Shown: positions 11,044-40,974 of the stretch, piece after piece
How the letters are laid out: each line of letters starts with the position of its first letter
Numbering within the stretch: the first letter of the stretch is position 1
Assembly: GCA_045580585.1 (NCBI GenBank)
Contig: JAZNOD010000135.1
Span: 1 to 42,082, forward strand
From: Eubacteriales bacterium
GTDB taxonomy: Bacteria > Bacillota > Clostridia > Oscillospirales > CAG-272
Direction of reading: 5' to 3'
Length of the DNA stretch: 42,082 bases
Made by a program: the position numbers and the translations under genes
The notes under the pieces: model-generated
What the model saw: the letters and a program-made list of their open reading frames with translations, nothing else
Told to the model about the DNA's origin: nothing
The model's database searches: none

Positions 11044-11179
11044 TTTAGAGTGCTCCTGAATTTCAGTATTGTTTACATTATAACATATTTCGGTTACATT
11101 GCGCCATTCACAATATCACCAAAATATGATATCATTTATTTGAAAGCATAAATAAAAACGCCAAAAAGGAGAATATGCA

Positions 11180-22052: not shown

Positions 22053-22090
22053 AACGCCTTTGCGAAGTGTCGCAAAGGCGTTGTTTTTTT
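22053..22090. terminator. bidirectional terminator (GpsA-like gene / cyclophilin gene)
   Basis: 12-bp stem aacgcctttgcg / cgcaaaggcgtt followed by a T7 run. Confidence 0.8.
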
Positions 22091-22664
22091 ACTTATCTCT
22101 TATAGTAATACTTTCGATTATCGGCTGTTCGCTCGGAAGAATTGTGCCGTTGCCGTCAATGGGGGACGCATCATAGCAGATCGCATCAACTATCTCCATT
22201 CCCTCGATAACACGTCCGAATGCCGCGTAAAGTCCGTCAAGGCTGCTTTGGGCATCCTGATGAACGATAAAGAACTGCGAGCTTGCGCTGTTCATATCCT
22301 CTCCGCGTGCCATGGAAATGACACCGCGTGTATGCGAGATAGGATTGTTGTATCCGTTTGCGGCAAACTCACCCTTTATCTTTTTACCAGAGCCGCCATA
22401 ACCGTTTCCCTCCGGGTCGCCGCCCTGAATTACAAAGCCCGCGTAAATACGGTGGAATGTGAGTCCGTCGTAAAATCCTTCACGTGCGAGCTTTATGAAA
22501 TTTTTGGCGGTTATCGGTGCCGCATCTGAGTCGATCTCAACCGTGATAGTGCCGTAATCGCGGATGACTATGTCGGCGTAGTATTTGCCGCTCACGTTTT
22601 CTGAGGCGCACGAGGTACAGATTATCATAACTAAAATCAAAAGTATCGGCAAAAGCTTTTTCAT
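22089..22664 (-). CDS. Cyclophilin-type peptidyl-prolyl cis-trans isomerase, probable lipoprotein
   Basis: 191 aa. Signal/lipobox-like MKKLLPILLILVMIICTSCAS. Cyclophilin motifs FHRIYAGFVIQGGDP and SQFFIV. Confidence 0.9.
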   Translation of the reverse strand: MKKLLPILLILVMIICTSCASENVSGKYYADIVIRDYGTITVEIDSDAAPITAKNFIKLAREGFYDGLTFHRIYAGFVIQGGDPEGNGYGGSGKKIKGEFAANGYNNPISHTRGVISMARGEDMNSASSQFFIVHQDAQSSLDGLYAAFGRVIEGMEIVDAICYDASPIDGNGTILPSEQPIIESITIRDK

Positions 22665-22760
22665 ACTGTTCTCCTTTATTTTATAATATTATGAGTATAG
22701 CACACTTTTTCAATTTTTTCAAGAGGAAAGTGTATAGTAGCCTATTTTTACATATTCATG

Positions 22761-23988: not shown

Positions 23989-25359
23989 ATGGATTTTTCA
24001 GCTGCCAACACAGAGCTGTGGGCACCGGTCATACAAATCGGTATCATGGCGGCACTCATTTTTCTGTCCAATGTACTTCTCAGAAAAATACCATTTATCA
24101 AAAAAAGCCTTATGCCCATATCAGTTTTGGCGGGCTTTATACTCCTGCTTCTCCGCACGACCGGAATTCTCGATATTGACGCAGTATTTTTGGAAAAGCT
24201 TACATATCACGCACTTGCTCTCGGCTTTATAGCCATGGCTCTGCGTATCCCCGAAAAAAATTCCGGGACAACAGCTCTTACCGGCGCACGAAGCGGTGCC
24301 CTTATCGTCAGCACATATCTGGTGCAGGCAATAATCGGTCTTAGCATATCCTTAGTGCTCGCGTTCACTGTTATGCCCGATCTTTTCAAGGCAAGCGGCA
24401 TACTTCTGCCAATGGCATACGGTCAGGGTCCCGGTCAGGCAAACAATGTCGGTACGACCTATGAGGCACTCGGAATGGCAGGCGGCAGAACCTTCGGTCT
24501 GTCACTTGCGGCATCGGGATATCTCTGCGCGTGCGTTGTTGGTGTTATATTTCTTAATATATACAATAAGCGCGGCAGTATCCGCCGTGTCTCTGAAAAA
24601 TCAGAGCTGTCAGGCTCGGTAACGCTCGATACCTTTCAGCATCAGGGCGAAATTCCAATATCAGAATCAGTTGACAAGCTCTCGGTTCAGTTTGCACTCG
24701 TTGCTATAGTTTATCTTGTAACCTACCTCATCATATGGGGAATTACTTCCCTGCTCGCTTTGATAGCTCCCGGCTTGGCGGCTACTGTATCAACACTTTT
24801 GTGGGGCTTTAACTTCATTATCGGTTCAGTTGTAGCAATGGGCTGTCGCGCCCTCTTTACAGGGCTGAGATCCGCAAAGCTGATGAACCGTCAGTATCGG
24901 AATAACTACCTGCTCTCCCGTATATCCGGTCTTGCCTTTGACCTTATGATAATCGCAGGCATCGCCGGAATAAATATTGATGACCTCTCGGCAATGTGGA
25001 TTCCCTTCATACTAATGGCTGTTGCCGGTGGAGTTATTACGTTTATTTATCTCAAATATATGTGCAAAAAGCTCTACCCCGGATATGAAAACGAAGGCTT
25101 CTTCTCAATGTACGGCATGCTCACGGGAACTATCAGCTCCGGCGTGCTCCTGCTTCGCGAGATCGATCCCGAGTTTGAAACTCCCGCAGCAAACAATCTT
25201 ATCACGGGAAGCTCATTCGGCATTGTCTTTGGAGCACCTGTATTGCTTCTCGTAAGCCTCGCGGCAAAGAGTACACTCATGTGTATTTTAACGGTTGTTA
25301 TCGCGGCAGTATATCTTATCGCGCTGCTGATTTTCATGTTACTGCGAAGAAAAAAATAA
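23989..25359 (+). CDS. Polytopic membrane transporter, sodium/glutamate symporter (GltS)-like
   Basis: 456 aa with more than 10 TM helices. By eye it resembles the GltS family. It starts 23 nt after the acyltransferase gene. Confidence 0.55.
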   Translation: MDFSAANTELWAPVIQIGIMAALIFLSNVLLRKIPFIKKSLMPISVLAGFILLLLRTTGILDIDAVFLEKLTYHALALGFIAMALRIPEKNSGTTALTGARSGALIVSTYLVQAIIGLSISLVLAFTVMPDLFKASGILLPMAYGQGPGQANNVGTTYEALGMAGGRTFGLSLAASGYLCACVVGVIFLNIYNKRGSIRRVSEKSELSGSVTLDTFQHQGEIPISESVDKLSVQFALVAIVYLVTYLIIWGITSLLALIAPGLAATVSTLLWGFNFIIGSVVAMGCRALFTGLRSAKLMNRQYRNNYLLSRISGLAFDLMIIAGIAGINIDDLSAMWIPFILMAVAGGVITFIYLKYMCKKLYPGYENEGFFSMYGMLTGTISSGVLLLREIDPEFETPAANNLITGSSFGIVFGAPVLLLVSLAAKSTLMCILTVVIAAVYLIALLIFMLLRRKK

Positions 25360-25483
25360 ATTTCACGAAATAGTGTGAGGTCATTTGTAAATGTCATGAA
25401 GACTACCGCCTCGACAAGTGCAGATTTTCCTTGATCAGATGTGGAAGGCTGACATTCGTCCGTAGTAGCCTTCAGAATAAACA

Positions 25484-25639
25484 ATGCTCACTGCAGATAT
25501 GTTGACACTTCATACTGACATTATCACCTCGTATGCAAGATGGATGCCGACGGCATATTTCTCTGTGTCGCTTATTGAGCTTAAATTTACCAAAAAAGGC
25601 AAGGTTACCTACATAAAGATCGTCGTTGACACAAAATAA
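25484..25639 (+). pseudogene. C-terminal relic (51 codons) of a further member of the MENKKWYE paralog family
   Basis: The translation ends ...SLIELKFTKKGKVTYIKIVVDTK*, which parallels the paralog C-termini (LNLKFNGSGTVYFIDVVVDAK*). There is no RBS. The same terminator type follows. Confidence 0.5.
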
Positions 25640-25643
25640 ATTG

Positions 25644-25680
25644 AATGCTCTGCCGTAGCACTTCGGCAGAGCATTTTTTC
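25644..25680 (+). terminator. rho-independent terminator
   Basis: Stem aatgctctgccg / cggcagagcatt followed by TTTTT. The stem core gctctgccg/cggcagagc recurs at 28688-28713. Confidence 0.8.
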
Positions 25681-25700
25681 TTCAAATTTCACAAAAAGCC

Positions 25701-25729
25701 TTGACTTTATTTTACCGATATGCTATAAA
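25701..25729 (+). promoter_or_regulatory. promoter of paralogs 1-2
   Basis: TTGACT (25701-25706), 17-nt spacer, TATAAA (25724-25729). Confidence 0.6.
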
Positions 25730-25764
25730 TATTATAGTATAATTGTGTACGGAGGTCCCTCTAT

Positions 25765-27216
25765 ATGGAAAACCAAAAATGGTATGAGAATATGTATTAT
25801 CTCAACCGCGACCCCGACTGGGACTGCGATTGGATATGGACACAGGAAGGGATGGACGATTCCACTCCCGAGTCCTGCATAAAAGGTATTGAAAAAATCT
25901 TTGGTGAATATCAAAATCCCATCACCGATGCCGGACTTTGCCTATTCTGTCAGGTTGCGCTTCTGCCCTCAAAAGCATACACATGGGGCGGTGAACGCTG
26001 GCCGGAATATTACAACAGAATGCCGGATGCAGCAAAAAGATGGAAGCGCCCGTACAAAATGTTTGCAGAATACAAAATCGACCCGGTTCAGATTTTTATT
26101 GACACCGTAAGAAAAAACAACATCCGTCCGTGGGCATCGTTCAGAATTAACGATATTCATCCGCCGTCAATCCCCACACGCATGTATGTTGAGTGCGCGG
26201 AATCAGATCAGATGGTGGGAAGCCACAACTTCTACAGCTTCCGCCGCAACTGCTTCGATTTTGCCTATCCCAAATACAGAAATGCACTTCGAGATTTAAT
26301 CAAGGAAGTGTTTGACAAGTACGATTTCTTCGGTATTGAGCTTGACTTCATGCGCGAGCCGTATTGCCTTGACTACAAGGGTAATCCCGAATGTCATAAG
26401 ATAATGACCGAATATATCAGAGAGATAAAGGGCATCATGCGCGAGGCTGAAAAACGTCTTGGACATGACATAAAGATATTTATAAGAGTTCCTTCCACCC
26501 CGTCCACATGTATGGAGTTCGGCTTCGATGTGAAAACAATGGTAGACGAAGGTCTTGTTGACGTTGTAGCTCCTGCTCCGCATCAGGTATGCACCGACAG
26601 CGGTATTTCCGTAAAGGAATGGAAAGAATGGGTTGGCAACAAGGTTCCGATAGTTCCCGGAATCGAATCTTCCAATCTCAAATGCACCTCCAACACCACT
26701 GTACCCCTCACAAAAGGATATCTCGCCTCTTTCTTCGGTCAGGGGGCTGAGGGCGCACATCTTTACAACTATTTCATGAGCCCTTTTCATGTGGATACAT
26801 GGAAGATTACAAGAGAAGACGTGCTTCGCGGCACTCGCCAGTTTATCGTAACATACCAGGACTGCTTCGCATATGAGGAAAACCAGTATAAGCCGCTTCC
26901 GATGCGAGTTGACTGCAAAGCAACACTTCCGCTCGAGGTAGGTCGTATAAAGTCCACCGATAAGGTAAGCGTTATTATTGACTATGAGGGCGATACAGCA
27001 CCCACTCTTTCTGTAGCTGGCAAAGAAAATGTCACCGCTGTTCAGATCGAGCCTATCATCCGTCCCGGTCAGGGTCCGGACGGCATGGCGAACCTCACCG
27101 AACACACACCGCTCTCTTTTGACATCAGCGGCATCGAAACTCCGTCGCATCTCGACCCTACATTCAACGGAAAAGGTACAGTACACTATGTAGAGCTCGA
27201 GATCGATGCAAAATAA
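25765..27216 (+). CDS. Paralog 1 of an unassigned ~480-aa cytoplasmic protein family (predicted TIM-barrel glycosidase-like domain plus C-terminal beta domain)
   Basis: 483 aa with a GGAGG RBS. N-terminus MENQKWYENMYYLNRDPDWD. Motifs RINDIH, ELDFMREPYCLDY, IRVP, VPGIE, GQGAEGAHLYNYF. C-terminus GTVHYVELEIDAK. No signal peptide or TM helix. Confidence 0.85.
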   Translation: MENQKWYENMYYLNRDPDWDCDWIWTQEGMDDSTPESCIKGIEKIFGEYQNPITDAGLCLFCQVALLPSKAYTWGGERWPEYYNRMPDAAKRWKRPYKMFAEYKIDPVQIFIDTVRKNNIRPWASFRINDIHPPSIPTRMYVECAESDQMVGSHNFYSFRRNCFDFAYPKYRNALRDLIKEVFDKYDFFGIELDFMREPYCLDYKGNPECHKIMTEYIREIKGIMREAEKRLGHDIKIFIRVPSTPSTCMEFGFDVKTMVDEGLVDVVAPAPHQVCTDSGISVKEWKEWVGNKVPIVPGIESSNLKCTSNTTVPLTKGYLASFFGQGAEGAHLYNYFMSPFHVDTWKITREDVLRGTRQFIVTYQDCFAYEENQYKPLPMRVDCKATLPLEVGRIKSTDKVSVIIDYEGDTAPTLSVAGKENVTAVQIEPIIRPGQGPDGMANLTEHTPLSFDISGIETPSHLDPTFNGKGTVHYVELEIDAK

Positions 27217-27244
27217 ATGGTATATATTTTGGAGGTAAACACTT

Positions 27245-28681
27245 ATGGAAAACAAGAAATGGTATGAAAACATGTTCATGCTCAACCGCGACCCCGACTG
27301 GGACTCGAAATGGCTTTGGGAAAGCAAAGGAAGAGATGATTCCACCAAAGAAGCATGTGAAAAAGGTATAGAGGAGATCTTCGGCGGATATCGAAATCCA
27401 CTGACCGACGTAGGACTTTGCCTGTTCTGTCAGGTTGCACTGTTCCCCACCGACAAGCACCTTTGGGGCGGCAGAATGTTCCCTCTTTACAGATACAATG
27501 ACGGCGCAGGCTGGCGTTGGAAACGTCTTAATATGATCTATGAGGATTACAAGCTTGACCACGTTCAGATGTTCATAGACCAGACTAAAAAGCACAATAT
27601 AAGACCTTGGGCAACCTTCAGAATGAATGACTGCCATTCTTCGAACACTCCTACAGCACTCAAGGTAGAAGCAATAGAGGGCGGAATGGTTGTCGGAAAT
27701 GAATACGGCTATTACCGTCACTGCTTCGACTTCTCCTATCCGAACTACAGAAGCGCACTTCGCGACGTTATCAAGGATGCTGTTGACAGATACGATTGGT
27801 TTGGTGTTGAGCTTGACTTCACTCGTGAACCGTATTGCTTTGACTATAAAAATAACCCCGAATGTCATAAGATCATGACAGAGTATGTCCGCGAGATCAA
27901 GGAAATTGTTTCAAACGCGGAAAAGCGTGTCGGTCACAAGATACAGATACTTATCCGAGTTCCCGCCACTCCTTCCACCTGCCTTGAGTTCGGCTTCGAT
28001 ATCAAGACAATGGCAGAACAAGGACTCATTGACGCAGTAAATCCCGCTCCCAGATGGGCACACAGCGACAGCGGTATTCCGATAAAAGAATGGCATGAGC
28101 TGGTAAATTATAAAATTCCCGTACTCGCAGGCATCGAGCAGATGAATGTTGACTACACCGTTACCACGCTCGAAATGGTAAAGGGTTACGTAGCCGCGTT
28201 CTACGGTCAGGGCGCAGACGGTATTTCGCTCTACAACTACTTCAATTCCTATACTCCCCCGAGCCCTTGGGATATCTCAAAGGAGGTTGCACTTGAGGGT
28301 AAACGTCAGTTTGTCGTAACCGATCAGGACTGCTTCGCATATCCGGAAAACCGTTACAAGCCCCTTCCGCTTGAGATTAGCGGCAAGGTAGAGCTGCCCC
28401 TTGAGGTAGGTCTTATCAAAGCAAATGACAGCGCGTGTATCATCATCGACTTTGATGGAGATGTAATGCCTACTCTCACAGTTAACGGAAAAGAAATTGC
28501 AGCCGTTAAGTGCGAGCCGGTTGAGCGCAGAATTGCCGGTAAGCAGGAAAACCTCAATCTTACCCCGCATAATCCGCTCTCGTATGACATAAGCGGAATT
28601 GAAACGCCTTCCTCGCTTAATCTTACATTCAGCGGAAGTGGTACTGTACACTACGTTGAGGTTGTAATAGACGCAAAATGA
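27245..28681 (+). CDS. Paralog 2 of the same family
   Basis: 478 aa. It starts 28 nt after paralog 1 with a GGAGG RBS. By eye it is roughly 60 percent identical to paralog 3. It ends with a TGA stop. Confidence 0.85.
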   Translation: MENKKWYENMFMLNRDPDWDSKWLWESKGRDDSTKEACEKGIEEIFGGYRNPLTDVGLCLFCQVALFPTDKHLWGGRMFPLYRYNDGAGWRWKRLNMIYEDYKLDHVQMFIDQTKKHNIRPWATFRMNDCHSSNTPTALKVEAIEGGMVVGNEYGYYRHCFDFSYPNYRSALRDVIKDAVDRYDWFGVELDFTREPYCFDYKNNPECHKIMTEYVREIKEIVSNAEKRVGHKIQILIRVPATPSTCLEFGFDIKTMAEQGLIDAVNPAPRWAHSDSGIPIKEWHELVNYKIPVLAGIEQMNVDYTVTTLEMVKGYVAAFYGQGADGISLYNYFNSYTPPSPWDISKEVALEGKRQFVVTDQDCFAYPENRYKPLPLEISGKVELPLEVGLIKANDSACIIIDFDGDVMPTLTVNGKEIAAVKCEPVERRIAGKQENLNLTPHNPLSYDISGIETPSSLNLTFSGSGTVHYVEVVIDAK

Positions 28682-28687
28682 CACCAT

Positions 28688-28717
28688 GTGCTCTGCCGGT
28701 AACGGCAGAGCATTCTT
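28688..28717 (+). terminator. rho-independent terminator after paralog 2
   Basis: Stem gtgctctgccg-gtaa-cggcagagcat followed by TCTT. Confidence 0.65.
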
Positions 28718-28747
28718 GTAAAAACGCAAAAAATCTCATAATATATC

Positions 28748-28776
28748 TTGACTTCCTCTTTGCGATATGGTATAAA
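28748..28776 (+). promoter_or_regulatory. promoter of paralog 3
   Basis: TTGACT (28748-28753), 17-nt spacer, TATAAA (28771-28776). The surrounding sequence resembles 25701-25735. Confidence 0.6.
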
Positions 28777-28820
28777 TATTATGACATAACTGCATGTCAA
28801 TATTTTTGAGGTGACTACTA

Positions 28821-30263
28821 ATGGAAAACAAGAAATGGTATGAAGGCATGCACATGCTCAACCGCGATCCCGACTGGGATACTTCCGGACTTTGGGACAG
28901 AATGGAAAGAGATGAATCCACTCCGGAAGCATGCAAAAAAGGAATTGAGGAAATTTTCGGTTCATACAGAAAGCCGCTGACCGACGTTGCGCTCTGTCTG
29001 TTTGCACAGGTTGCGCTACTCCCTGCGAAGTCATACATCTGGGGCGGAACATTCTGGGAGCTTTACAGATACTCTAACCGTGACGGAGCGCTCAGATGGA
29101 GACGCCCGCACATGATTTTCAAGGAATACGGACTTGATCCCGTTCAGATATTTATCGACCAGACAACAAAGAACGGTATAAGACCTTGGGCAACATTTAG
29201 AATGAATGACTGCCATCCTCCGAGAATTGCAACAGCTATGTATGCAGAAGCTGTAGAAAACGGACAGGTTGTCGGTGAGTCCTACGGCTACTACCGCCAT
29301 TGCTTCGATTTTGCATATCCGAAATACAGAAACGCAGTTCGTGATCTTATTAAAGAAGTTTTCGACAAGTACGATTTCTTCGGACTTGAGCTTGACTTCA
29401 TGCGCGAGCCGTACTGCTACGACTATAAGAACAACCCCGACTGCCACAAAATGATGATCGAGTATCTGCGTGAGATCAAGTCGATCATGCTTGAAGCAGA
29501 AAAGCGTGTAGGTCACGAAATAAAGATACTTATAAGAGTTCCCTCCACCCCCATCGCCTCCTTACAGTTTGGTTTTGATGTTAAGACCATGGCAGATGAA
29601 GGACTTATCGACGCTGTAACCCCCACACCGAGATGGAGAACCAGCGACAGCGGTATTCCCGTAAGAGAGTGGAAAGAGCTTGTCTGCGACAAGATCCCCG
29701 TAATCCCCGGTATAGAATATCTTAACCTTGAGTATACATATACCGATGTCAACATGGCAAAGGGATACTTTGCTTCCTTCTTCGGTCAGGGCGCTGACGG
29801 CAGTTATCTCTACAACTTCTTCAATCAAAGCGGAACTCCCAGCACTTGGGACATCACCAAGGAAAATTGCCTTGAAGGCATGCGTCAGTTCATCGTAACC
29901 GACCAGGACATAGCCGCATATCCCGAAAACCGTTATCTGCCGCTTCCAATGGCGGTTGATGGCACGGCAGAGCTTCCGATCGAGGTTGGTCTTATCAAGC
30001 CCACCGACGATGTAACTCTCATTATAGACTTTGAGGGCGAGGGCGAGCTTACTGTTTCCGCACTCGGCAGAGAAAATGTTGCCGGTGTTAAAATCAACCC
30101 CGTAACAAGAAAAATCTGCGGCAAGCCGGAGTCTGCAAACCTTACACCTCACAGACCTCTTGCATTTGATTTCAGCGGCTGTGAAACTCCCGCTCCAATG
30201 AATCTCACCTTCACCGGAAACGGAACCGTTCACTACGTTGAGGTTATGATCGACGCTAAATAA
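28821..30263 (+). CDS. Paralog 3 of the same family
   Basis: 480 aa. N-terminus MENKKWYEGMHMLNRDPDWD. All family motifs are present. Confidence 0.85.
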   Translation: MENKKWYEGMHMLNRDPDWDTSGLWDRMERDESTPEACKKGIEEIFGSYRKPLTDVALCLFAQVALLPAKSYIWGGTFWELYRYSNRDGALRWRRPHMIFKEYGLDPVQIFIDQTTKNGIRPWATFRMNDCHPPRIATAMYAEAVENGQVVGESYGYYRHCFDFAYPKYRNAVRDLIKEVFDKYDFFGLELDFMREPYCYDYKNNPDCHKMMIEYLREIKSIMLEAEKRVGHEIKILIRVPSTPIASLQFGFDVKTMADEGLIDAVTPTPRWRTSDSGIPVREWKELVCDKIPVIPGIEYLNLEYTYTDVNMAKGYFASFFGQGADGSYLYNFFNQSGTPSTWDITKENCLEGMRQFIVTDQDIAAYPENRYLPLPMAVDGTAELPIEVGLIKPTDDVTLIIDFEGEGELTVSALGRENVAGVKINPVTRKICGKPESANLTPHRPLAFDFSGCETPAPMNLTFTGNGTVHYVEVMIDAK

Positions 30264-30269
30264 CTACCT

Positions 30270-30303
30270 TCCGCGCTGTAATATTGCAGCGCGGATGTTT
30301 TTT
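30270..30303 (+). terminator. rho-independent terminator after paralog 3
   Basis: Stem tccgcgctg / cagcgcgga followed by TGTTTTTT. Confidence 0.8.
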
Positions 30304-30333
30304 CAAATTTTCCATATTGGGCGACAATATTGC

Positions 30334-30362
30334 TTGACGTGCAAATGTAAATGCTGTATTAT
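30334..30362 (+). promoter_or_regulatory. promoter of paralog 4
   Basis: TTGACG (30334-30339), 17-nt spacer, TATTAT (30357-30362). Confidence 0.55.
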
Positions 30363-30396
30363 GTAAATATGATTACAGGCTTGGAGGTAACTTCAC

Positions 30397-31821
30397 ATGG
30401 AAAACAAAAACTGGTATGACGGCTCGCTGTTTTTAAACCGCGCCCCCGACTGATGCCTGCACATAGACTGCTCCACAAAGGAGCTTGCACAGAAAAATCT
30501 CGAGGAAATGTTCTCGGCATATGCAAGCGAGGCTATAACAGATGTTGCCATTAACGTCTTTGCACAAGCGTCATACATTCCAAATTCCGTGTTCGACTGG
30601 ATGCCGGGATATTGGATTAAATATAAGGACACCGATCCCGACTTTGCAAAGCGGTGGGAAAACTTCTATCTATGCTACGCGGAATACGGAATCGACCCCG
30701 TTCAGATTTTCATAGATCAAACCAACAAAAACGGACGCCGTGCATGGGTATCGATCCGCATGAACGACTGCCACAAGGGACTCTCACGCTCAAAATTCTT
30801 TGACGAGGAGCAGGCAGAGGGGCATCTTATCGGTGAAGCATACGGCTACTACTGGCACGCTTACGACTACCAGTATCCGAGATACCGCACACTGCTGAAA
30901 TACTACATAGCGGAAGTTCTTTCAAAGTACGACTTTTTCGGCATAGAGTACGATTTCCTGCGTGAACCGTGGTGCTTTGACTACAACAATATAAAGAACC
31001 CCCACGAAATAATGAACGAGTATCTGCGTGAGCTTAAGGCTATAGTTACCGAGGCTGAAGGGCGTGTCGGTCACAAGATTCAGATTCTAATGCGCATCCC
31101 GCGCGATATAAAAACATGCATGGACTTCGGATTCGACGTTGAAACCATTGCAAATGAAGGCCTTGCCGATGTACTCAGCCCATGTGCGAGATATGCGCCT
31201 ACCGACGGCTGTCTTCCTGTAAGAGAGTGGCTCGCGCGTGTGGGAGATAAAGTAGCCATCATCCCCGGAATAGAAGTGTTTAACAAGCGTATGTTCTTTT
31301 CCGAGCCTAAACATTCAAAGGCGTTTCTTGCCTCATTTTACGGTCAAGGCGCACCTGGAGCATACCTCTACAACTTCTGGAACATTAACAAAGGAAACCG
31401 CGAGGTTTGGACGTTCAACGCCGAGAACTGCCTTAAAGGGCTGCGTGAATTTTACGTAACCGAGCAGGATCTTTGCATTAACCCGGAAACAAAGTACAAG
31501 CCCTTCCCCCTCGTAATCGACGGTGAAGCTGATTTTTCCATGGAAGTCGGAAAAATCAAGGCAAGTGATGACACCAAGATAATTATTGACTTTATCGGTG
31601 ACGTTATCCCAACACTTTCGGCAAACGGCGGAAAGGCTATCACGCCAGTTCAGTGTGAACCTATAAACATGATAAATCACCTTGGCAAGCTCATCACACA
31701 GACCGATAATACTCCGCTTTCATTTGATCTTTCCGGCATTGAAACAGACTCGCCGCTAAATCTGAAATTCAATGGAAGCGGCACCGTATACTTTATTGAC
31801 GTTGTTGTTGACGCTAAATAA
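30397..31821 (+). pseudogene. Paralog 4, interrupted by an in-frame TGA at codon 19 (residual ORF 30508-31821)
   Basis: ATG 30397 with a GGAGG RBS gives MENKNWYDGSLFLNRAPD*. The TGA at 30451-30453 sits where all other copies have TGG (Trp). The same frame continues to 31821 with the family motifs (RMNDCH, EYDFLREPWCFDY, PGIE). Confidence 0.75.
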
Positions 31822-31827
31822 TTCAAG

Positions 31828-31861
31828 CTTCGCTGTGACATGTTCACAGCGAAGTTTTTTG
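31828..31861 (+). terminator. rho-independent terminator after paralog 4
   Basis: 11-bp stem cttcgctgtga / tcacagcgaag followed by TTTTTT. Confidence 0.85.
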
Positions 31862-31908
31862 TAAATTCCACTCGTTTTTTTAATATGTTATCTATTTTTA
31901 AAAATGGG

Positions 31909-31937
31909 TTGACATCCCCCAAAATATGTGATATAAA
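31909..31937 (+). promoter_or_regulatory. promoter of paralogs 5-6
   Basis: TTGACA (31909-31914), 17-nt spacer, TATAAA (31932-31937). Confidence 0.6.
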
Positions 31938-31999
31938 TAAAGTTAATAAGCGATCTTTATCGCGGAAAGGATGCTGTTTTGCAGCAGCTACAGATTTGT

Positions 32000-33449
32000 A
32001 TGGAAAACAAAAAATGGTATGAAGGCATGTATATGATGAACCGCGATCCCGACTGGTGTCTTGGTGTAACAAGTGAATCCAAAGAAGCCTGCGAAGCACA
32101 GCTTATACATCACTTCTCATCCTTCGTTAACGGAACACAGATCACCGATGTAATGTTCAACACATTCTGCTCGCAGTCCTACATTCCTTCATTTGTTTTT
32201 GACTGGTTTGCGATGCGCTGGATTCAGTATAAGGACTACGATTACCTGACAGGAGAAAAGGTAACCGAAATTCCCTTCCAAATTGCGCGCTGGGAAACCC
32301 TTTATAAATGCTACGCCGAATTTAATATAGATCCCGTTCAGATATTCCTCGATCAGATGAAAAAGTACAACAAGCGAGCATGGCTCTCCATACGTATGAA
32401 CGACTGCCACCATGATGTCTATAACGGCACAAAGATGCAGCAGGAGGATATTGCAGCGGGTCAGACAGTCGGTGATGCTTACGGCTACTTCAGCAAGTGC
32501 CGCAACTTCTCATACGGCAGATACCGCACACTGCTCCTCGCTTACGTTGAAGAAGTATTCTCAAAATATGATTTCTTCGGTCTTGAGCTGGACTTCATGC
32601 GGGAGCCGTACTGCTTCGACTACAAGAATACCCCCGACTGCCACAAGATAATGACTGAATATTTGAGAGAAGTGAAGGCTCTTGTTTCCATAGCTGAGGC
32701 GCGTGTCGGAACATGACATAAAAATTCTCATAAGAGTTCCGAGCTTTCCCAAAGCTGCGTTTGCACTTGGATTTGATGTTGAAACACTCTATAAAGACGG
32801 CATTATCGATGCCGTCAACCCCACACCGCTGTTTAATAACACAGACAGCTACATTCCGATTGAAGAATGGAAAGCAATGCTCGGCGACGATGCCGCCATT
32901 ATCCCGGTACTTGAAATACTTAACCATAAGTATCCCTACAACCAGCTTGAAAACGTCAAGGCATATCTCGCGGCCTTTTACGCGCAGGGCGCGCCCGGTG
33001 CATATCTTTACAACTATTACGGCCACGCAAAAAGCGGAATATGGGATCTCACTCCCGAAAAGTGCCTTGAAGGAAAGCGCCACTTTATCGTTACAAACGA
33101 GGACTGCTTTGCATTCCCCGAGGAGCGCAACAAGCCGCTTCCGATAGCGATTGATACAAGCGCAGAGCGAAAGCTTCTCATTGGAAAGGTTAAGCCGAGC
33201 GATAAGGTAACACTTCGTATTGACTTTGAAGGTGAGAAAGCACCTGTGCTTTGTGTTGGCGTGAAAACGAATATTCATGGCACACCAACCGAGTCAATCA
33301 CGCTTGGCGGGAACGGAAAGACGCTTATTCTTTCAGATTACACACCGTATTCTTATGACATAAGCGGCATCGAAACCGATAATGAGATTACCGTAAAATT
33401 CGACGGTAACGGAACTGTACACTATCTTGACCTGCTCATAGAGGCATAA
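32000..33449 (+). pseudogene. Paralog 5, disrupted by a 1-nt insertion (frameshift near 32711)
   Basis: ATG 32000 gives MENKKWYEGMYMMNRDPDW. Frame A stops at 32714-32716. Homology (..ARVG|HDIKILIRVPS..) resumes in the +1 frame (ORF 32703-33449). The extra A lies in GGA-A-CAT. No SD sequence precedes the ATG. Confidence 0.75.
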
Positions 33450-33473
33450 AATAAATACCAAGGAGATTTTATC

Positions 33474-34916
33474 ATGGAGAACAAGAAATGGTATGAGGGC
33501 GCGTATATATTCAACCGCGACCCCGACTGGAACGGTCAGATCAACATGAACACCGACAAGGAAACCTATCTCAAGGATCTGCGCGAAACCTTCGCGGCGT
33601 ACAAGGGTGGCATAACCGATATCGCACTTTGCGTTTTCGGCAAAGGTTCGGTTATTCCCTCTGAAACCACACCGTGGGGCTCTGACAAGTGGCTCAAATA
33701 CAAAGATATTGATCCTAACGAATCCTTTGGTCAGGCTCCCAATCACTATAAATGCTTTGTGGAGTATGGCATAGATGCCGTTGAGGTGTTCATTGAGGAA
33801 ACAAAGAAGAACGGCATACGCCCGTGGCTTTCAATGAGAATGAACGACTGCCACCCGTCTAAATACAACATTGACCTTTATTATGAAGCCGAGGAAAAGG
33901 GTATGCTCCTCGGCAAAGAGTACGGATACTACGGCACATGCTATAACTTCGCGTTTGACAAGTACCGCGATATGACCATTGACTTCATGCGCGAAATGCT
34001 CTGCAAGTACGATGTCTTCGGTCTTGAGCTCGACTTTCTTCGTGAGCCGCACTGTCTTGACTACAAGCACGACGAAAACCGTTGGGAAATCATGACCAAC
34101 TACATGCGTCGCGTTAAAGCAACCGTTACCGAGTGCGAAAAGGTGATAGGACATCCGATCAAGATACTTATGCGTCACCCGAGTAATCCCGAGTCCGCAT
34201 ACGATTTCGGCTTTGATATGAAGACTATCGCCGCAGAGGGACTTATCGACGTATCCAGTCCCGGTCCGAGATGGCTCAACTGTGACAGCTATATTCCCGT
34301 TGATGAGTGGCAGAAGATCGTTGGAGATGACATCCCCGTTATCCCCGGTCTTGAGATATTTAACGTTAAATATATCTACAGCCAGGATTATCACATAAAG
34401 GGTTACATGGCAGCGTACAAGGCGCTTGGTGCAAAGTCTATATATGCATACAATTTCTTCTGGATAAACGAAGACAACCAAAAGAATTGGCAGGTGTCTA
34501 TTGATAACTGTACCGAGGGTTACCGCGAATTCATCGTTGCAAATCAGGACTGCTTCACACGCGAGGACATGAGTTATAAGCCGCTGCCGATAAAGCTTGA
34601 CGGCACTCACGAGTTGCCGCTTGTAATCGGTCTTGTAAAGAGCATAGACGACGTTAAGCTCGTTATAGATTTTGAAGGGGATGAGATTCCCGTAGTGTCT
34701 GTTGAAGGCAAGGAAAATGTGGTCGGATATGAGCGTGAGCCTATCCGCGAAGGTTCAGGCAGCGGCACTCCTGATGCTGACGGAAAATGCATCATCACCA
34801 CACACAACACTATCGAATATGACCTTAACGGAATTTCCACAGACGGTCCCATATCGCTCACATTTAATGGAAAAGGAACTGTACACTACATCAACTTCAG
34901 AATAGACGCGAAATAA
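33474..34916 (+). CDS. Paralog 6 of the same family (most divergent intact copy)
   Basis: 480 aa with an AAGGAG RBS. N-terminus MENKKWYEGAYIFNRDPDWN. Motifs RMNDCH, ELDFLREPHCLDY, PGLE. C-terminus GTVHYINFRIDAK. Confidence 0.85.
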   Translation: MENKKWYEGAYIFNRDPDWNGQINMNTDKETYLKDLRETFAAYKGGITDIALCVFGKGSVIPSETTPWGSDKWLKYKDIDPNESFGQAPNHYKCFVEYGIDAVEVFIEETKKNGIRPWLSMRMNDCHPSKYNIDLYYEAEEKGMLLGKEYGYYGTCYNFAFDKYRDMTIDFMREMLCKYDVFGLELDFLREPHCLDYKHDENRWEIMTNYMRRVKATVTECEKVIGHPIKILMRHPSNPESAYDFGFDMKTIAAEGLIDVSSPGPRWLNCDSYIPVDEWQKIVGDDIPVIPGLEIFNVKYIYSQDYHIKGYMAAYKALGAKSIYAYNFFWINEDNQKNWQVSIDNCTEGYREFIVANQDCFTREDMSYKPLPIKLDGTHELPLVIGLVKSIDDVKLVIDFEGDEIPVVSVEGKENVVGYEREPIREGSGSGTPDADGKCIITTHNTIEYDLNGISTDGPISLTFNGKGTVHYINFRIDAK

Positions 34917-34937: not shown

Positions 34938-34972
34938 AAAATACCGCTGCATAAAGCAGCGGTATTTTCCTT
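34938..34972 (+). terminator. rho-independent terminator closing the array
   Basis: Stem aaaataccgctgc / gcagcggtatttt followed by a T-rich tail. Confidence 0.8.
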
Positions 34973-34999: not shown

Positions 35000-35028
35000 T
35001 TGACAAACACTTTGCCGTATGGTATAAT
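35000..35028 (+). promoter_or_regulatory. consensus sigma-A promoter of tRNA-Pro
   Basis: TTGACA (35000-35005), 17-nt spacer, TATAAT (35023-35028). Confidence 0.7.
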
Positions 35029-35052: not shown

Positions 35053-35128
35053 CGGGATGTAGCGCAGTTGGTAGCGCGCCTGCTTTGGGAGCAGGATGTC
35101 GCAGGTTCAAATCCTGTCATTCCGACCA
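35053..35128 (+). tRNA. tRNA-Pro (anticodon UGG), CCA-encoded
   Basis: A 76-nt cloverleaf folded by hand: acceptor cgggatg/cattccg, D-arm gcgc-agttggta-gcgc, anticodon arm cctgc-ttTGGga-gcagg, T-arm gcagg-ttcaaat-cctgt, then ACCA. Confidence 0.93.
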
Positions 35129-35293: not shown

Positions 35294-35956
35294 TCACTTA
35301 AACGCCGGAGCGTGGGTCTCGCCCGTTGCAAAAGCGTTGGGTCCGGGATCGGACATAGAAAAATACATTTTTGCTGCCTTGGTCGTGCCGAAGTCGCGGT
35401 TAGAGCCGGTCTGTTGTACCTTATTGAAGGCATCGCGGAACATCTGATTGTGGGCTTCTTCACGGTTGAGGAGAAAATCAATGGTCTCTCTGACCTTTTT
35501 GTCCTCAATCTGGCGGTAGAGATACTCATAAACCACCTTGGCTCTCTGCTCGGACGCGATATTGGAGAGCAGGTCTGCGCACAGGTCGCCCGTGACGGTG
35601 ACGTAATCTCCCGTCCATGAATATCCCGAAGAATTAATAAGCCCGGGATTCAGTCCGAGCAGAACGTGCGTCTGCACCTCTCCTGCCTGCACCTTGGTGG
35701 CATCCACGTCATGACCGTTAAGAAGATTGATAGTCTGTGCCACCATCTCCATATGACCAAGCTCCTCTGCGGCGATATCAAGAAAGAGATCCTTGATTTC
35801 GGGATCCTTGATCCTGAAGCTCTGCGACATATACTGCATTGCCGCCTTGAGCTCACCGTTACCGCCGCCGAGCTGTTCCTGAAGCAGTACGGCGTACTGC
35901 GAGTTCGGTCTTTCGACCTCTACAGGATGGAATAATTGTTTTTCATGTTTGAACAT
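35294..35956 (-). CDS. Manganese catalase family protein
   Basis: 220 aa. LLQEQLGGGNGELKAAMQYMSQSF and EELGHMEMV match the Mn-catalase di-metal motifs. Confidence 0.9.
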   Translation of the reverse strand: MFKHEKQLFHPVEVERPNSQYAVLLQEQLGGGNGELKAAMQYMSQSFRIKDPEIKDLFLDIAAEELGHMEMVAQTINLLNGHDVDATKVQAGEVQTHVLLGLNPGLINSSGYSWTGDYVTVTGDLCADLLSNIASEQRAKVVYEYLYRQIEDKKVRETIDFLLNREEAHNQMFRDAFNKVQQTGSNRDFGTTKAAKMYFSMSDPGPNAFATGETHAPAFK

Positions 35957-36021
35957 AGCAAATTTAACCTCCGTTTATGGATTTAATACTATTATTTCCC
36001 ATTATGCGAAGGCGTATACTG

Positions 36022-37326
36022 CTATATTCTTTTATCATCCGTCGCGGGATTGTCGATCAGCTCGCCGTCTTCAGTGAAACGTGAGCCGTGGCAGGGGCAG
36101 TCCCAGGTGTGTTCGGCTTTGTTGTATTTGAGGGCGCAACCGAGGTGTGGACATCGGGGCGCGGTGGGTGTAAGAAGTCCGATTGCAGACTCAAAAGCAT
36201 TTACCGCAAGCTGTGGATGAAGAACCGTGCGTGAGGGGTCGAAAACGTCAGCATAAGGGTTGGGCTTTCCTTGAACGAGATCGCAGAGAATATCTGCGGC
36301 GACCATGGCGTTGGTCATGCCCCACTTGTTAAATCCCGTTGCCACAAAAACGTCGGGCGTGGATCTTGAATATTGACCGATATAAGGGATATCATCGAGC
36401 GTCATACAATCCTGCGTCGCCCACTTGCCGACGATCTCGGCATTTTTGTAATACTTACGGGCAAAATCTTCAAGCTCCTGCCAACAACCGCCTTGCTTGC
36501 CAGTTCGGTGTCCGCCACCGCCGAGGAGCAGAAGATCGCCGTAACTTCGGAAGGACAGTCCCGTGTCCGATTCATCCACATACATTCCTTCTACTTTTTT
36601 GGCGTTTTTGAGTGCAAGAACGTAGGAACGATGCTGATAGAGTTTGAGATAGTACAAGCCATGTTTATTGAGCATCGGAAAATGAGTTGCAATAATCAGT
36701 TTTTTGTAGGTGATTTCACCGTGATTGGTGATTGCCTTGTGCGGCATCAGTTCCATGACTTTAGTATGCTCGTAGATTGGCAGATCTTTTGCAATTGTAT
36801 AGAGAAATTTCAACGGGTGGAACTGCGCTTGATCTCTCACGCGCACCGCCCCTGCGACCGTAAACGGAAGCTCGCAGGCATCCAAGGACTCGGCTTTCAT
36901 ACCGAGACGCCCCAAGGCGGCGACCTCTTTTTCAATCTTCTTGCGGTCACCCATAGAATATACGTAGTTATCCCGCGTTTCATAGTCGCAATCGATCTTT
37001 TCACAAAGCTGAGCATATTCTTTGATTGCTTTATTTTGTGCGTCAATGTAAAGGCGTGTTTTATCCTCACCAAAGCGTTTGATCATTTTGTCGTAGATCA
37101 AACCGTGCCCCAAAGTGATCTTCGCCGTGGTGTTTTTTGTGATACCACCGCTGATCTCATTCGCCTCGACCAGTATACAATCCACGCTCGCATTTTTTAG
37201 CTTATAGGCGCATAAAATCCCCGTGATCCCGCCTCCGATGATCAGAATGTCGGTGTTTTTATTGCTACTCAAAGCATCAAAATGCACACGCTTTGCAGTA
37301 TCTTCCCAAATAGAATCCATACTCAT
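36022..37326 (-). CDS. FAD-dependent oxidoreductase fused to a C-terminal Rieske [2Fe-2S] domain (YhfW-like)
   Basis: N-terminal GGGITG dinucleotide fold. C-terminal Rieske ligands CPHLGC...CPCHGS. I prefer ATG 37326 as the start because it overlaps the stop of the upstream small ORF (TGATG). The ORF-track GTG at 37362 is possible. Confidence 0.85.
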   Translation of the reverse strand: MSMDSIWEDTAKRVHFDALSSNKNTDILIIGGGITGILCAYKLKNASVDCILVEANEISGGITKNTTAKITLGHGLIYDKMIKRFGEDKTRLYIDAQNKAIKEYAQLCEKIDCDYETRDNYVYSMGDRKKIEKEVAALGRLGMKAESLDACELPFTVAGAVRVRDQAQFHPLKFLYTIAKDLPIYEHTKVMELMPHKAITNHGEITYKKLIIATHFPMLNKHGLYYLKLYQHRSYVLALKNAKKVEGMYVDESDTGLSFRSYGDLLLLGGGGHRTGKQGGCWQELEDFARKYYKNAEIVGKWATQDCMTLDDIPYIGQYSRSTPDVFVATGFNKWGMTNAMVAADILCDLVQGKPNPYADVFDPSRTVLHPQLAVNAFESAIGLLTPTAPRCPHLGCALKYNKAEHTWDCPCHGSRFTEDGELIDNPATDDKRI

Positions 37327-37505
37327 CACTCGCCGTTTACCAGAGAATCCACGTAGTGACACATCTCATCTCTGCTTTTTACCGCGTGTGTTCCTGCGAT
37401 GATCTGTTGCTTTTGTTCCTCGCTGAGCGTTCCGAACTTCTGCATAGCTTCGGGATTCATCGCAAGCGCCATAGCAAAGCCAACCGGCATTTCGTCTTTC
37501 GTCAT
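37326..37505 (-). CDS. Small hypothetical protein (59 aa), translationally coupled to the FAD/Rieske gene
   Basis: It is not in the ORF track because it is under 60 aa. A GGAGGT RBS lies 6 nt upstream of ATG 37505. Sequence MTKDEMPVGFAMALAMNPEAMQKFGTLSEEQKQQIIAGTHAVKSRDEMCHYVDSLVNGE. Its stop shares nucleotide 37326 with the next start. Confidence 0.6.
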   Translation of the reverse strand: MTKDEMPVGFAMALAMNPEAMQKFGTLSEEQKQQIIAGTHAVKSRDEMCHYVDSLVNGE

Positions 37506-37628
37506 CTTTTTACCTCCGATTTGTGATATGAATAGTATTTGTGATTTTCGGGTCTTACATACCTGTCAAAATCTCGTATAGATCACTTCGGAAATGCCGA
37601 AAATAAAAGAGATAACGGAGGTGAAGAT

Positions 37629-39569
37629 ATGAGCAATCGATTGGCAAAGGAAACAAGCCCCTATTTACTTCAACACAAGGATAATCCCGTGGAGTGGTAT
37701 CCTTGGTGCGACGAGGCGTTTGAACTCGCGGCAAGGGAGGACAAGCCCATATTTTTAAGTATCGGATACAGTGCGTGCCATTGGTGTCACGTGCTTGCTC
37801 ACGAGAGCTTTGAGGACGAAGAAATGGCCGAGATTTTGAATAAATATTTTATATCCATCAAGGTTGATAAAGAGGAGCGTCCCGACATTGACAGTGTCTA
37901 TATGGCGGTCTGTCAAGCCTTCACGGGAAGCGGCGGCTGGCCCACCAGCATCTTTATGACGGCAGATCAGAAGCCGTTTTTCGCTGGAACTTATTTTCCC
38001 AAAACCTCACGGGGCGGTATGATAGGCTTTCGGGAGCTACTGCTCGCCATACACGAAAAATGGGTATCCAACCGCGATATGCTCTTGAGGGATTCGGAGA
38101 AAATTATTGAGCATCTGAACAGCTCGGAGAGCGTGTCGGATATAGCGGATATTGATCTAACACACTTGGCAGTGTCGCAATATGAGCGCATCTATGACGC
38201 AAAACACGGCGGATTCGGACGAGCGGCGAAGTTTCCGACACCGCACAATCTGCTCTTTTTGCTCGATTACTACGAGCGTTACAAAACAGCCTCGTGTCTG
38301 AACATGGCGGAGCAAACCCTCTTGCAGATGTATCGCGGTGGAATGTTCGATCACATCGGATTTGGATTCTGCCGCTATTCCACCGACAAAAAGTTTCTTG
38401 CTCCGCATTTCGAGAAAATGCTGTACGACAACGCGCTCCTGATACTCGCCTATTGTAAGGCGTACACGGTAACAAAAAAGGCATTATATCTTGAGATCGC
38501 AGAAAAAACGGCAAGCTATATTCTCCTTGAAATGACCTCCCCCGAAGGCGGATTTTACAGCTCGCAGGACGCCGACAGCGAGGGTGAAGAAGGAAAATAT
38601 TATCTGTTTACGCCCGACGAGATCACAAAGATTCTTGGCACAGAGGACGGAACGCGCTTCAACCGTCATTTTGATATAACGGACGCAGGCAATTTTGAGG
38701 GCAAGAATATCCCGAATCTCTTAAAAAGCGATCCTTCCAATAACAGCTTTGAATCTTTTCTTCCCATGCTTTATGATTACCGAAAAAAGCGATATTCACT
38801 TCACCGCGACGAAAAGATCTTAACGTCGTGGAACAGCCTGATGATCGCCGCTATGTGTGAGCTGTATCTTGTCAGCGGGAAGGAAATATATCTTTCTGCC
38901 GCACAAAACTCAGATAGCTTTATGCAGAAATGTATGTGTGATGGTGATGCGCTCTATGTCAGCTTTTATATGAAAAAACGGGGCGTAAAAGGCTTTATCG
39001 ATGATTACTCCGCGTATGTTTTTGCCCAACTTTCGCTGTATCGCGCCACTTTGGATAGTGAACATTTGAATAGGGCAAAGCGCTTATGCGATAAGGTTAT
39101 ATCGGATTTCGGAGATAATACGGGCGGATTTTATCTGTATGGCAAAGATCACGAGGAGCTGATTTTGCGTCCAAAAGAAACCTACGACGGCGCGATCCCA
39201 AGCGGTAATTCGCTGATGGCGTATAATCTTGTTCGCCTGTCTCTTATTACAGACGAGGAGAAATACAAAATCGAAGCGGAACGGCAGCTTGATTTTCTCG
39301 CGCAAAGCGCAGCACAATATCCCACAAACCACGCTATGTTTTTGAAAGTGCTTTTGGAGCACGACAAGTCGCCAATGAAAGTAACGGTCGTTTCCGATCA
39401 ACAGACAGACAACAGAGGCTTGCCTCTTGCATTTCCACCTGATGCGATCGTCATTTTTTTAGATGCCCCCACAAAAGAATATCCGCTCAAAAACGGCAAG
39501 ACCACTTATTACGTCTGCCGAGGTCAAAGCTGCCTACCGCCAACCAACGACTTGAATGAATTGATTTGA
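37629..39569 (+). CDS. Thioredoxin-domain protein of the YyaL/DUF255 family (thioredoxin-like N-domain plus (alpha/alpha)6 domain)
   Basis: 646 aa. N-terminus [24 protein letters not shown]...[10 protein letters not shown] is characteristic. RBS GGAGGTG. Confidence 0.9.
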
Positions 39570-39606
39570 ATTTGCGAACACTAAATAGAGGAAAGGAGTG
39601 ATTAAT

Positions 39607-39741
39607 ATGTCTGAAAATAAAGATACGAAAAAAGAACAAGAGCCTAAAGATAAAAAGCCTCTTACTAAGCCCGGAGATATCAAGGGTAAGATCGAGGTTC
39701 CCGACACTTGTGAACGCAGAGACGGTCCCGGAGGAAACTGA
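39607..39741 (+). CDS. Small highly charged hypothetical protein (44 aa)
   Basis: AAAGGAG RBS 8 nt upstream. Sequence MSENKDTKKEQEPKDKKPLTKPGDIKGKIEVPDTCERRDGPGGN. A terminator follows. It is below the ORF-track size cutoff. Confidence 0.4.
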   Translation: MSENKDTKKEQEPKDKKPLTKPGDIKGKIEVPDTCERRDGPGGN

Positions 39742-39750
39742 AGCGGATAT

Positions 39751-39796
39751 AAATAAAAAATAACCTCGGCAAGAAAACTCCCTGCCGAGGCTTTCT
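39751..39796. terminator. bidirectional terminator at the junction with the mobile-element genes
   Basis: Stem cctcggca / tgccgagg with an A-rich 5' flank and a T-rich 3' flank. Confidence 0.65.
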
Positions 39797-39799
39797 ACA

Positions 39800-40973: not shown

Positions 40974-40974
40974 T

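Follow-up and report, generated by a model that had tools for sequence, protein, structure and literature searches.

The stretch of DNA analysed here, referred to as the window, covers positions 1 to 42,082 of contig JAZNOD010000135.1 (Eubacteriales bacterium, assembly GCA_045580585.1), i.e., 42,082 nucleotides (nt). Between 25400 and 34916 on its + strand, the listing of open reading frames and their translation reveal six full-length homologous units and one stump, placed head-to-tail. By sequence, fold and active-site residues, the proteins of this array are almost certainly members of the CAZy glycoside hydrolase family 156 (GH156), and they likely constitute a panel of cytoplasmic GH156-family enzymes acting on ulosonic-acid oligosaccharides. 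The array contains four intact genes (W1, W2, W3 and W6), one nonsense copy (W4ps), one frameshift copy (W5ps) and one relic, and the seven-member composition (four intact, two disrupted, one relic) given by an earlier reading of the letters, the first-pass annotation, is thus borne out. The units are the following:

25400-25639, + strand: relic, a copy cut at its 5' end and carrying an internal deletion; positions ~101-134 and 456-478 of the family hidden Markov model (HMM) remain
25765-27216, + strand: W1, intact GH156-like gene, 483 amino acids (aa), preceded by a GGAGG ribosome-binding site
27245-28681, + strand: W2, intact GH156-like gene, 478 aa
28821-30263, + strand: W3, intact GH156-like gene, 480 aa
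30397-31821, + strand: W4ps, pseudogene, nonsense copy
32000-33449, + strand: W5ps, pseudogene, frameshift copy
33474-34916, + strand: W6, intact GH156-like gene, 480 aa

Against the family HMM, the full-length units obtain 570-690 bits each, which establishes a homology far beyond chance. At the protein level, W1, W2 and W3 are 60-65% identical among themselves and every other pair 42-47%, close to what had been estimated by eye (around 60% for copies 1-3, with copies 4-6 more divergent); W6 is the most divergent paralogue (42-45% to the other copies). Moreover, the nucleotide identity between any two units does not exceed ~80% over 130-300 nt, and the synonymous sites between paralogues are saturated (proportion of synonymous differences, pS, 0.64-0.83). 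These are, as had been proposed, old and diversified duplications and not a recent amplification. The public gene call for W1 (protein P0001) is shorter than ours, i.e., 474 aa with Met10 as its start; we place the start at 25765, which is supported by the GGAGG site and by the conservation of the MENxKWY N-terminus.

The first-pass annotation had left this family unassigned and had proposed profile searches, structure prediction and Foldseek. Pfam and NCBIfam do not place it; sequence and fold searches of the PDB led to GH156. A phmmer search of W1 against the PDB matched one single protein, EnvSia156 (6rzd, E=2.5e-26). EnvSia156 (PDB 6rzd/6s00/6s04), an inverting exo-alpha-sialidase from a hot-spring metagenome, is the founding member of GH156. 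The match becomes stronger with profiles, reaching 2.9e-54 for a 39-member subfamily profile and 5.3e-129 for a broader 44-member profile, which covers residues 8-501 of the EnvSia156 chain and aligns its LNE-D14-NS motif with LNR-D16-PD of the array. The AlphaFold2 model of W1 (predicted local distance difference test 92.5, predicted template modelling (TM) score 0.91) displays a (beta/alpha)8 barrel followed by a C-terminal beta-sandwich. With this model as query, the best Foldseek hits are 6s04, 6rzd and 6s00 (TM 0.84/0.82, E ~1e-38, ~520 aligned columns), and for the fold ranking next, that of Cwp19 (GHL10 type), the TM is only 0.47. Pfam and NCBIfam hold no GH156 model, and for this reason genome annotation leaves GH156 proteins nameless; indeed, we found no name for the array proteins in public sources. 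An exhaustive HMM search gave 3,358 representative relatives at E<=1e-3, the tight full-length subfamily being limited to about a dozen representatives.

Other assignments were considered and rejected. The GHL10/Cwp19 family (PF02638) resembles the array proteins as a distantly related barrel (Pfam E=0.0016, TM 0.47, profile against Cwp19 E=3e-10), but its best Pfam score, 18.1 bits for W2, lies below the gathering threshold of 27.9, W1 and W6 give no match, its catalytic residues differ, and the C-terminal domain is left unmatched. A classical GH33 sialidase, i.e., a six-bladed beta-propeller with BNR repeats and a Tyr/Glu nucleophile pair, does not fit either, since no BNR/Sialidase Pfam match is found and the predicted fold is a TIM barrel. 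Finally, the TonB match that appeared in the Pfam/NCBIfam scan of the copies is spurious.

The active site was also compared with that of EnvSia156. In the latter, Asp14 acts as general base and His134 as general acid, the sialic-acid carboxylate is bound by Arg129, Arg202 and Asn346, and a conserved Arg, Arg246, is buried; the +1 (aglycone) platform consists of Trp164, Phe203, Phe278 and Trp279, and the glycerol chain is contacted by Asn15, Ser16, Tyr20, Cys53, Asp132 and Tyr135 (PMC6811678). In our joint alignment, D16, R127, D130, H132, R197, R241 and N335 (D14, R129, D132, H134, R202, R246 and N346 in EnvSia156 numbering) are kept in all the window copies and in every orthologue from the relatives, with D16A in W4ps as the single exception. 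The same seven residues are invariant across 39 subfamily members. The catalytic dyad D16/H132 is therefore present in W1, W2, W3, W5ps, W6 and all the orthologues, and the carboxylate triad R127/R197/N335 in every copy. The array proteins also carry four or more of the five active-site residues by which Mann et al. selected gut GH156 candidates (Mann et al. 2022, bioRxiv 10.1101/2022.06.28.497753).

The catalytic Asp, residue 16, lies in the first barrel strand behind a hydrophilic N-terminus. In the array as in EnvSia156, a signal peptide would not fit ahead of a catalytic Asp that lies within the first 16 residues; moreover, over 19-residue segments of the array proteins the Kyte-Doolittle hydrophobicity is at most 1.51, short of a transmembrane-like value, which agrees with the first-pass view of a cytoplasmic protein devoid of signal peptide and transmembrane helix. 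Signal peptides have been reported for many GH156 homologues, and related sister clades carry a lipoprotein signal peptide and a linker ahead of the same domain. Thus, the lipoprotein-anchored GH156-like proteins of related Clostridia (P0057, P0061-P0064 and P0070) share the catalytic domain (390-540 bits on the subfamily profile) and are extracellular, with a signal peptide and a linker of ~60 aa, whereas the window copies are cytoplasmic. The cytoplasmic location would hence be a specific property of the window's subclade.

By homology with EnvSia156, each intact product (W1, W2, W3 and W6), a (beta/alpha)8 barrel with a C-terminal beta-sandwich, would catalyse the inverting, single-displacement hydrolysis of a terminal alpha-keto-acid sugar (ulosonic, sialic-acid-type). 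Asp16 would activate the water molecule, His132 would protonate the leaving group, and Arg127, Arg197 and Asn335 would hold the C1 carboxylate. We are fairly confident that the array products are active as ulosonic-acid exo-glycosidases. Their substrates would be small sialylated or ulosonic-acid-capped oligosaccharides, processed after import since the array proteins have no export signal. The paralogues share a common catalytic core and differ at positions contacting the aglycone (+1) or the side chain, and would form a panel of linkage or sugar specificities. At the level of the locus, which lies between conserved core genes and a tRNA-Pro, copies duplicate, are exchanged between lineages, die and are deleted.

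The genomic context in relatives supports a link to sialic acid for the subfamily of the window. Indeed, in the related locus L008, an N-acetylneuraminate lyase (346 bits, for an NCBIfam equivalog cutoff of 281) lies beside an array of four copies belonging to the same subfamily. NanA-like genes are also found directly 3' of GH156-like genes in L035 and L040, and the L035 operon, which is AraC-regulated, comprises as well a major facilitator superfamily transporter and a GH127-like gene.

Several observations weigh against this reading. The array subfamily is only ~21% identical to EnvSia156. The EnvSia156 platform W164/F203/F278/W279 is replaced in the array by Y/F, E, R/H/L and W/Q/Y/F, and the glycerol contacts N15/S16 by P17/D18 in all the copies, so that the substrate may not be N-acetylneuraminic acid (Neu5Ac). 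The 45 paralogue-specific positions are not enriched within +/-3 residues of the contacts (Fisher p=0.50, in a crude one-dimensional test). No nan catabolic gene, dedicated transporter or regulator adjoins the array in the window, in line with the first-pass statement that dedicated regulators and partner enzymes are absent. All the genomes are metagenome-assembled genomes (MAGs), and the W5ps frameshift and the indels of the relative L082 (~6x coverage) could partly be assembly errors. Lastly, a gut GH156 protein with all the key residues was inactive on 4-methylumbelliferyl-Neu5Ac (4MU-Neu5Ac; Mann et al. 2022).

The replaced positions deserve to be put in the perspective of the family. The aromatic +1 platform of EnvSia156 was described as highly conserved among the first homologues, but Y-E-R-W is the commonest +1 state among 40 other sampled relatives, which makes the aromatic platform a feature of the EnvSia156 subgroup and not a family-defining one. 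Within the array, the +1 site of W1 is unique (H273-Q274), and W5ps has L-F. The Asn15/Ser16 region is variable across GH156, and a substrate diversity beyond Neu5Ac has been proposed for the family generally (Mann et al. 2022). Since a residue-complete homologue is inactive and the side-chain and aglycone pockets are altered here, ulosonic acids other than Neu5Ac are plausible substrates, i.e., N-glycolylneuraminic acid (Neu5Gc), 2-keto-3-deoxynononic acid (Kdn), 2-keto-3-deoxyoctonic acid (Kdo), 3-deoxy-lyxo-heptulosaric acid (Dha), pseudaminic acid (Pse) and legionaminic acid (Leg). That the substrate would be specifically Neu5Ac or Neu5Gc stands, in our estimation, slightly short of an even chance.

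This leads to the strongest alternative, which keeps the fold and the chemistry and replaces the host sialic acids by other 2-keto-3-deoxy acid sugars of the herbivore or bird gut, one specificity per paralogue. The candidates would be Kdo and Dha from plant rhamnogalacturonan-II, Kdn, or the bacterial pseudaminic and legionaminic acids. The variation of the side-chain-binding and +1 residues, both between paralogues and relative to EnvSia156, would fit such a diversity, as would the proposal of Mann et al. together with their inactive residue-complete protein, the ruminant and other herbivore hosts of the relatives, and the combination of GH156-like and GH127-like genes in the L035 operon. 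On the contrary, a true NanA lyase adjoins the L008 array of the same subfamily, the three GH156 enzymes characterised biochemically are all Neu5Ac-sidases, and Kdo/Dha pathway genes were seen near no array. We consider this alternative possible, though clearly less likely than a panel of ulosonic-acid hydrolases that includes sialic-acid-type substrates.

The species-representative genomes that we scanned place the closest relatives of the array in Candidatus Flemingiibacterium and other uncultured Clostridia from the guts of ruminants and other animals. GH156-like genes further removed are present in Verrucomicrobiota, Planctomycetota, Kiritimatiellia and other groups. Among the Clostridia, it is typical for the genes to stand in several tandem copies. 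Thus, L006 is a 10.2-kb contig made of at least seven copies, L003, L008, L034 and L042 contain four copies each, and one Flemingiibacterium contig, L045/L080 (both JAZTXD010000074.1), bears a cluster of ~14 GH156-like genes that are more distant and 730-930 aa long. Many GH156-like proteins possess an N-terminal extension of ~180-245 aa without Pfam match, an undescribed accessory domain; the long proteins that we noted are P0066, P0067, P0083, P0146, P0176, P0180 and P0181.

Three Candidatus Flemingiibacterium-like genomes share the left flank of the window, which suggests this genus for the window too, and allow a copy-by-copy comparison. L081, whose flanks have 84% nucleotide identity to those of the window, contains six copies up to the contig end (R1-R6), all intact. 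L082, with 98% identical flanks, belongs to the same species; this assembly shows lesions in three of its six copies. The third genome, JAZTXD (L084 and L001, which are one MAG), holds at least 11 intact copies in the syntenic locus, so that the syntenic loci vary from 6 copies to at least 11. A one-to-one orthology is observed for W1, W2, W3, W4 and W6. W1 corresponds to R2 (98%), S1 (93%, frameshifted in L082) and J3 (83%); W2 to R3, S2 and J4 (90-94%); W3 to R4 (88%), S3 (95%, with a frameshift near codon 24 in L082) and J5 (92%); W4ps to R5, S4 and J6, all intact; and W6 to S6 (90%) and J11 (86%), with a ratio of nonsynonymous to synonymous divergence (dN/dS) of 0.09. Hence, each paralogue is a lineage of old date that has been maintained separately. 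A younger subclade comprises W1-W3 and, in JAZTXD, a fourth member (J2), and R1/R6 and J7/J8 (92%) represent further lineage-specific duplications.

The comparison of dN/dS and copy number in relatives, which had been suggested at first pass, demonstrates that the intact copies are under purifying selection. Indeed, the dN/dS of orthologues is 0.065-0.14 against L081 and 0.09-0.19 against L082 (W4ps included), similar to the 0.03-0.16 of the housekeeping flanks. The synonymous divergence (dS) behaves differently. Within the species, i.e., against L082, it reaches 0.13-0.59 in the array and 1.34 at slot 5, versus 0.04-0.06 in four of the five flank genes, which amounts to 3-15 times the flanks. 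Conversely, W1 and R2 (L081 8333-9784) have a dS of only 0.13, with 98% amino acid identity, whereas between these two genomes the dS of the flanking core genes is 0.55-1.45; this closeness indicates a recent transfer or recombination of a single unit between lineages. Altogether, these data support a recombining, polymorphic locus under purifying selection and not a simple site of positive selection. The variable copy number, the lesions that differ between strains and the array dS in excess of the flanks lead us to conclude to a birth-and-death process with recombination.

The ongoing birth and death of genes recognised at first pass is supported by the lesions themselves: one copy is reduced to a stump, W4ps and W5ps are dead, and the lesions of L082, found in its W1, W3 and slot-5 copies, are not those of the window. 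Compared with its intact orthologues, W4ps carries two substitutions within four codons. The first, GAC>GCC at 30442-30444, is D16A and removes the catalytic base; the second, TGG>TGA at 30451-30453, is W19stop and affects the Trp of NRDPDW. Its translation from 30397 reads MENKNWYDGSLFLNRAPD*. The dN/dS of W4ps against its orthologues is still low (0.07-0.11), which implies that the inactivation is recent; W4 is intact in all three syntenic relatives. In W5ps, the insertion of one A around 32710 (+1, GGA-A-CAT), inside RVGHDIKIL, splits the unit into two frames. This copy lacks a Shine-Dalgarno sequence and ends in ...LLIEA, so that the shared ...DAK-type ending, which had been extended to all the copies, does not hold for it. 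At slot 5, the same-species strain L082 harbours a different paralogue, 64% identical to W5ps at the amino acid level and itself truncated. As for the relic, the stump of 51 C-terminal codons (25484-25639) is indeed present as described, but its extent had been underestimated: the relic reaches upstream to ~25400 and keeps a second fragment corresponding to HMM positions 101-134 ('QVQIFLDQMWKADIRP'). At the position of the relic, L081 has a Sod_Cu gene and the intact 489-aa copy R1, and the terminator and promoter downstream are conserved.

From these dynamics, one can go further and imagine a recombining 'specificity cassette' locus, where each paralogue would be a cytoplasmic inverting glycosidase devoted to a different ulosonic acid or linkage (e.g., Neu5Gc, Kdn, Kdo/Dha, Pse/Leg). 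This is a speculative extension, to which we would grant only about one chance in four. If true, these would be the first non-Neu5Ac activities in GH156, and conspecific strains would swap, duplicate and discard paralogues, tracking the glycans of the host gut.

The same lesions could be read in the opposite way, i.e., as those of a decaying remnant of an amplification, whose copies are mostly redundant or dying, with little function and a neutral turnover. In the window, three units out of seven are dead, L082 has lesions in three of six, W5ps has no ribosome-binding site, and no dedicated regulator or transporter is found. However, the purifying selection on the intact copies is strong and comparable to that of the housekeeping flanks, paralogues only 42-65% identical are each kept as an orthologous lineage in at least three genomes, JAZTXD retains at least 11 intact copies, and independent expansions took place in other lineages. 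We therefore judge decay improbable as the general explanation of the array.

Still less probable is that the GH156-like proteins, outside carbohydrate foraging, act jointly with an N-acetyltransferase of the AAC(3) type on compounds resembling amino sugars or aminoglycosides (e.g., on de-N-acetylated or diamino ulosonic acids, or in antibiotic modification). It is suggested by an AAC(3)-like gene (PF02522) lying directly upstream and on the same strand in L002 (3548-4372) and L006 (457-1290), and by the fusion of PF02522 to the N-terminus of P0021 (766 aa). Nevertheless, these are three cases only, neither the window nor its syntenic relatives show one, the N-terminal extensions of seven other long GH156-like proteins lack PF02522, and the AAC(3) scores fall far below the aminoglycoside-resistance cutoffs. 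We thus rejected the AAC(3)-like acetyltransferase as a general partner, given its absence from the lineage of the window and from these seven long proteins. As an observation limited to the two Flemingiibacterium MAGs concerned (L002 and L006), this neighbour may link functionally to amino or acetamido sugars. Finally, the reading of the array as an assembly artefact, or as a recent amplification reducible to one or two copies, could invoke the metagenomic origin of the contig, but the limited nucleotide identity of the units, their saturated synonymous sites and the recurrence of the identical gene order in three independent assemblies make mis-assembly very unlikely and effectively refute such a collapse, which the first-pass annotation had named as the outcome that would overturn it.

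Multigene glycosidase clusters are generally common in gut bacteria. What is noteworthy here is the organisation, i.e., tandem cytoplasmic paralogues in a recombining locus; this is neither a new protein family nor a new type of system. EnvSia156, which shares with the array the two-domain fold (TM 0.84), the Asp/His dyad, the Arg/Arg/Asn triad, the buried Arg246 and Asp132, was described as a single gene, whereas 6-11 tandem paralogues are found here. We found no description of GH156 tandem arrays in the literature; thus, of a match to a characterised family already known in such arrays, which had also been named as an outcome that would overturn the first-pass view, only the family match was obtained. 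The candidate GH156 proteins of the gut in Mann et al. (2022), with the active Christensenellales enzyme GUT_GENOME011168_01282 among them, resemble the array proteins by their origin in uncultured gut Clostridia (Firmicutes_A), the same five active-site residues and variable side-chain/aglycone pockets; tandem multiplicity, paralogues and localisation are not mentioned there, and our sequences come for the most part from Candidatus Flemingiibacterium-like MAGs of animal guts. The GH156 family was defined recently and is barely characterised, with one solved structure and three enzymes of shown activity. The finding that a tandem set of 6 to at least 11 diverged cytoplasmic GH156 paralogues is maintained in some uncultured gut Clostridia, with a strain-variable gene content, provides a natural enzyme panel for mapping GH156 substrate specificity, possibly toward non-Neu5Ac ulosonic acids, and a tractable case of glycosidase birth and death with inter-lineage recombination.

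The expression signals of the array, called by consensus matches only as far as promoters and terminators are concerned, are distributed as follows:

25643-25676, + strand: terminator-like hairpin after the relic, 13 bp stem then T-run; kept after R1 in L081
25684-25745, + strand: promoter-like element of 62 nt (TTGACT ... TATAAT) upstream of W1
28731-28792, + strand: duplicate of this promoter-like element upstream of W3, 74% identical to that of W1
30270-30295, + strand: terminator-like hairpin after W3
30334-30362, + strand: promoter-like site ahead of W4ps
34938-34968, + strand: terminator-like hairpin after W6, closing the array

GGAGG-type ribosome-binding sites precede five of the six units. 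The intergenic gaps are short between W1 and W2 (28 nt) and between W5ps and W6 (24 nt), and W1 and W2 are probably co-transcribed.

The window is an ordinary Firmicute chromosomal region, containing an ATP synthase operon and genes for aspartyl-tRNA synthetase, GatA/GatB, an SLH-domain transglutaminase-like protein, a Y-family polymerase, a G3P dehydrogenase and a cyclophilin. The array is bounded by two features:

23989-25359, + strand: left boundary, 456-aa polytopic membrane protein, a conserved flank in all four syntenic genomes
35053-35128, + strand: right boundary, tRNA-Pro(TGG), with a perfect sigma-70 consensus upstream at 35000-35028

The 456-aa protein had been called a GltS-like transporter, a name that we do not retain: it gives no Pfam or NCBIfam match at E<=0.1, including with Glt_symporter PF03616 and the gltS models, and none in the PDB. 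Its very large and highly conserved family collects over 5,500 hits, of which many show 72-89% identity, and represents an abundant, uncharacterised transporter-like family of gut Clostridia. We rejected it as a dedicated importer for the array, since it has no family match and its family is far more widespread than the array. More generally, when 13 proteins of the window flanks were searched by tblastn in 80 related loci, no conserved partner gene travelling with the arrays emerged. What lies between the membrane protein and the first copy varies, with a Cu/Zn superoxide dismutase in L081 (6147-6614), a TMEM164-family gene in L084 (4288-5031) and the relic in the window.

On the right side, the tRNA-Pro announced at first pass is confirmed. 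The synteny with L082 stops exactly at its 3' end (35128). Beyond it, L082 (18186-21437) carries a 641-aa gene and a phage-type integrase, and the window (35294-42051) carries a Mn-catalase, a DAO/Rieske oxidoreductase and a DUF255 thioredoxin-like protein, followed further downstream by ParB (40074-41021) and then by a MobA/VirD2-type relaxase fragment (40975-42051). This tRNA-Pro looks like an integration hot spot with different islands in each strain.

Other differences touch the left part of the region. A cyclophilin-type peptidyl-prolyl isomerase gene (22089-22664, - strand) is present in the window, L081 and L084 and missing in L082, whose alignment skips window positions 22185 to 22697, a within-species indel of a housekeeping-type gene. 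In L008 (5769-8556), nanA comes after the array, and the ATP-synthase operon (atpI, atpB) directly after nanA; in the window, this operon (1.7-7.9 kb, - strand) lies ~18 kb from the array. Finally, a divergent AraC-family regulator and a GH4 glycosidase at 10240-12511 of the window form a separate sugar-utilisation unit, unrelated to the array.

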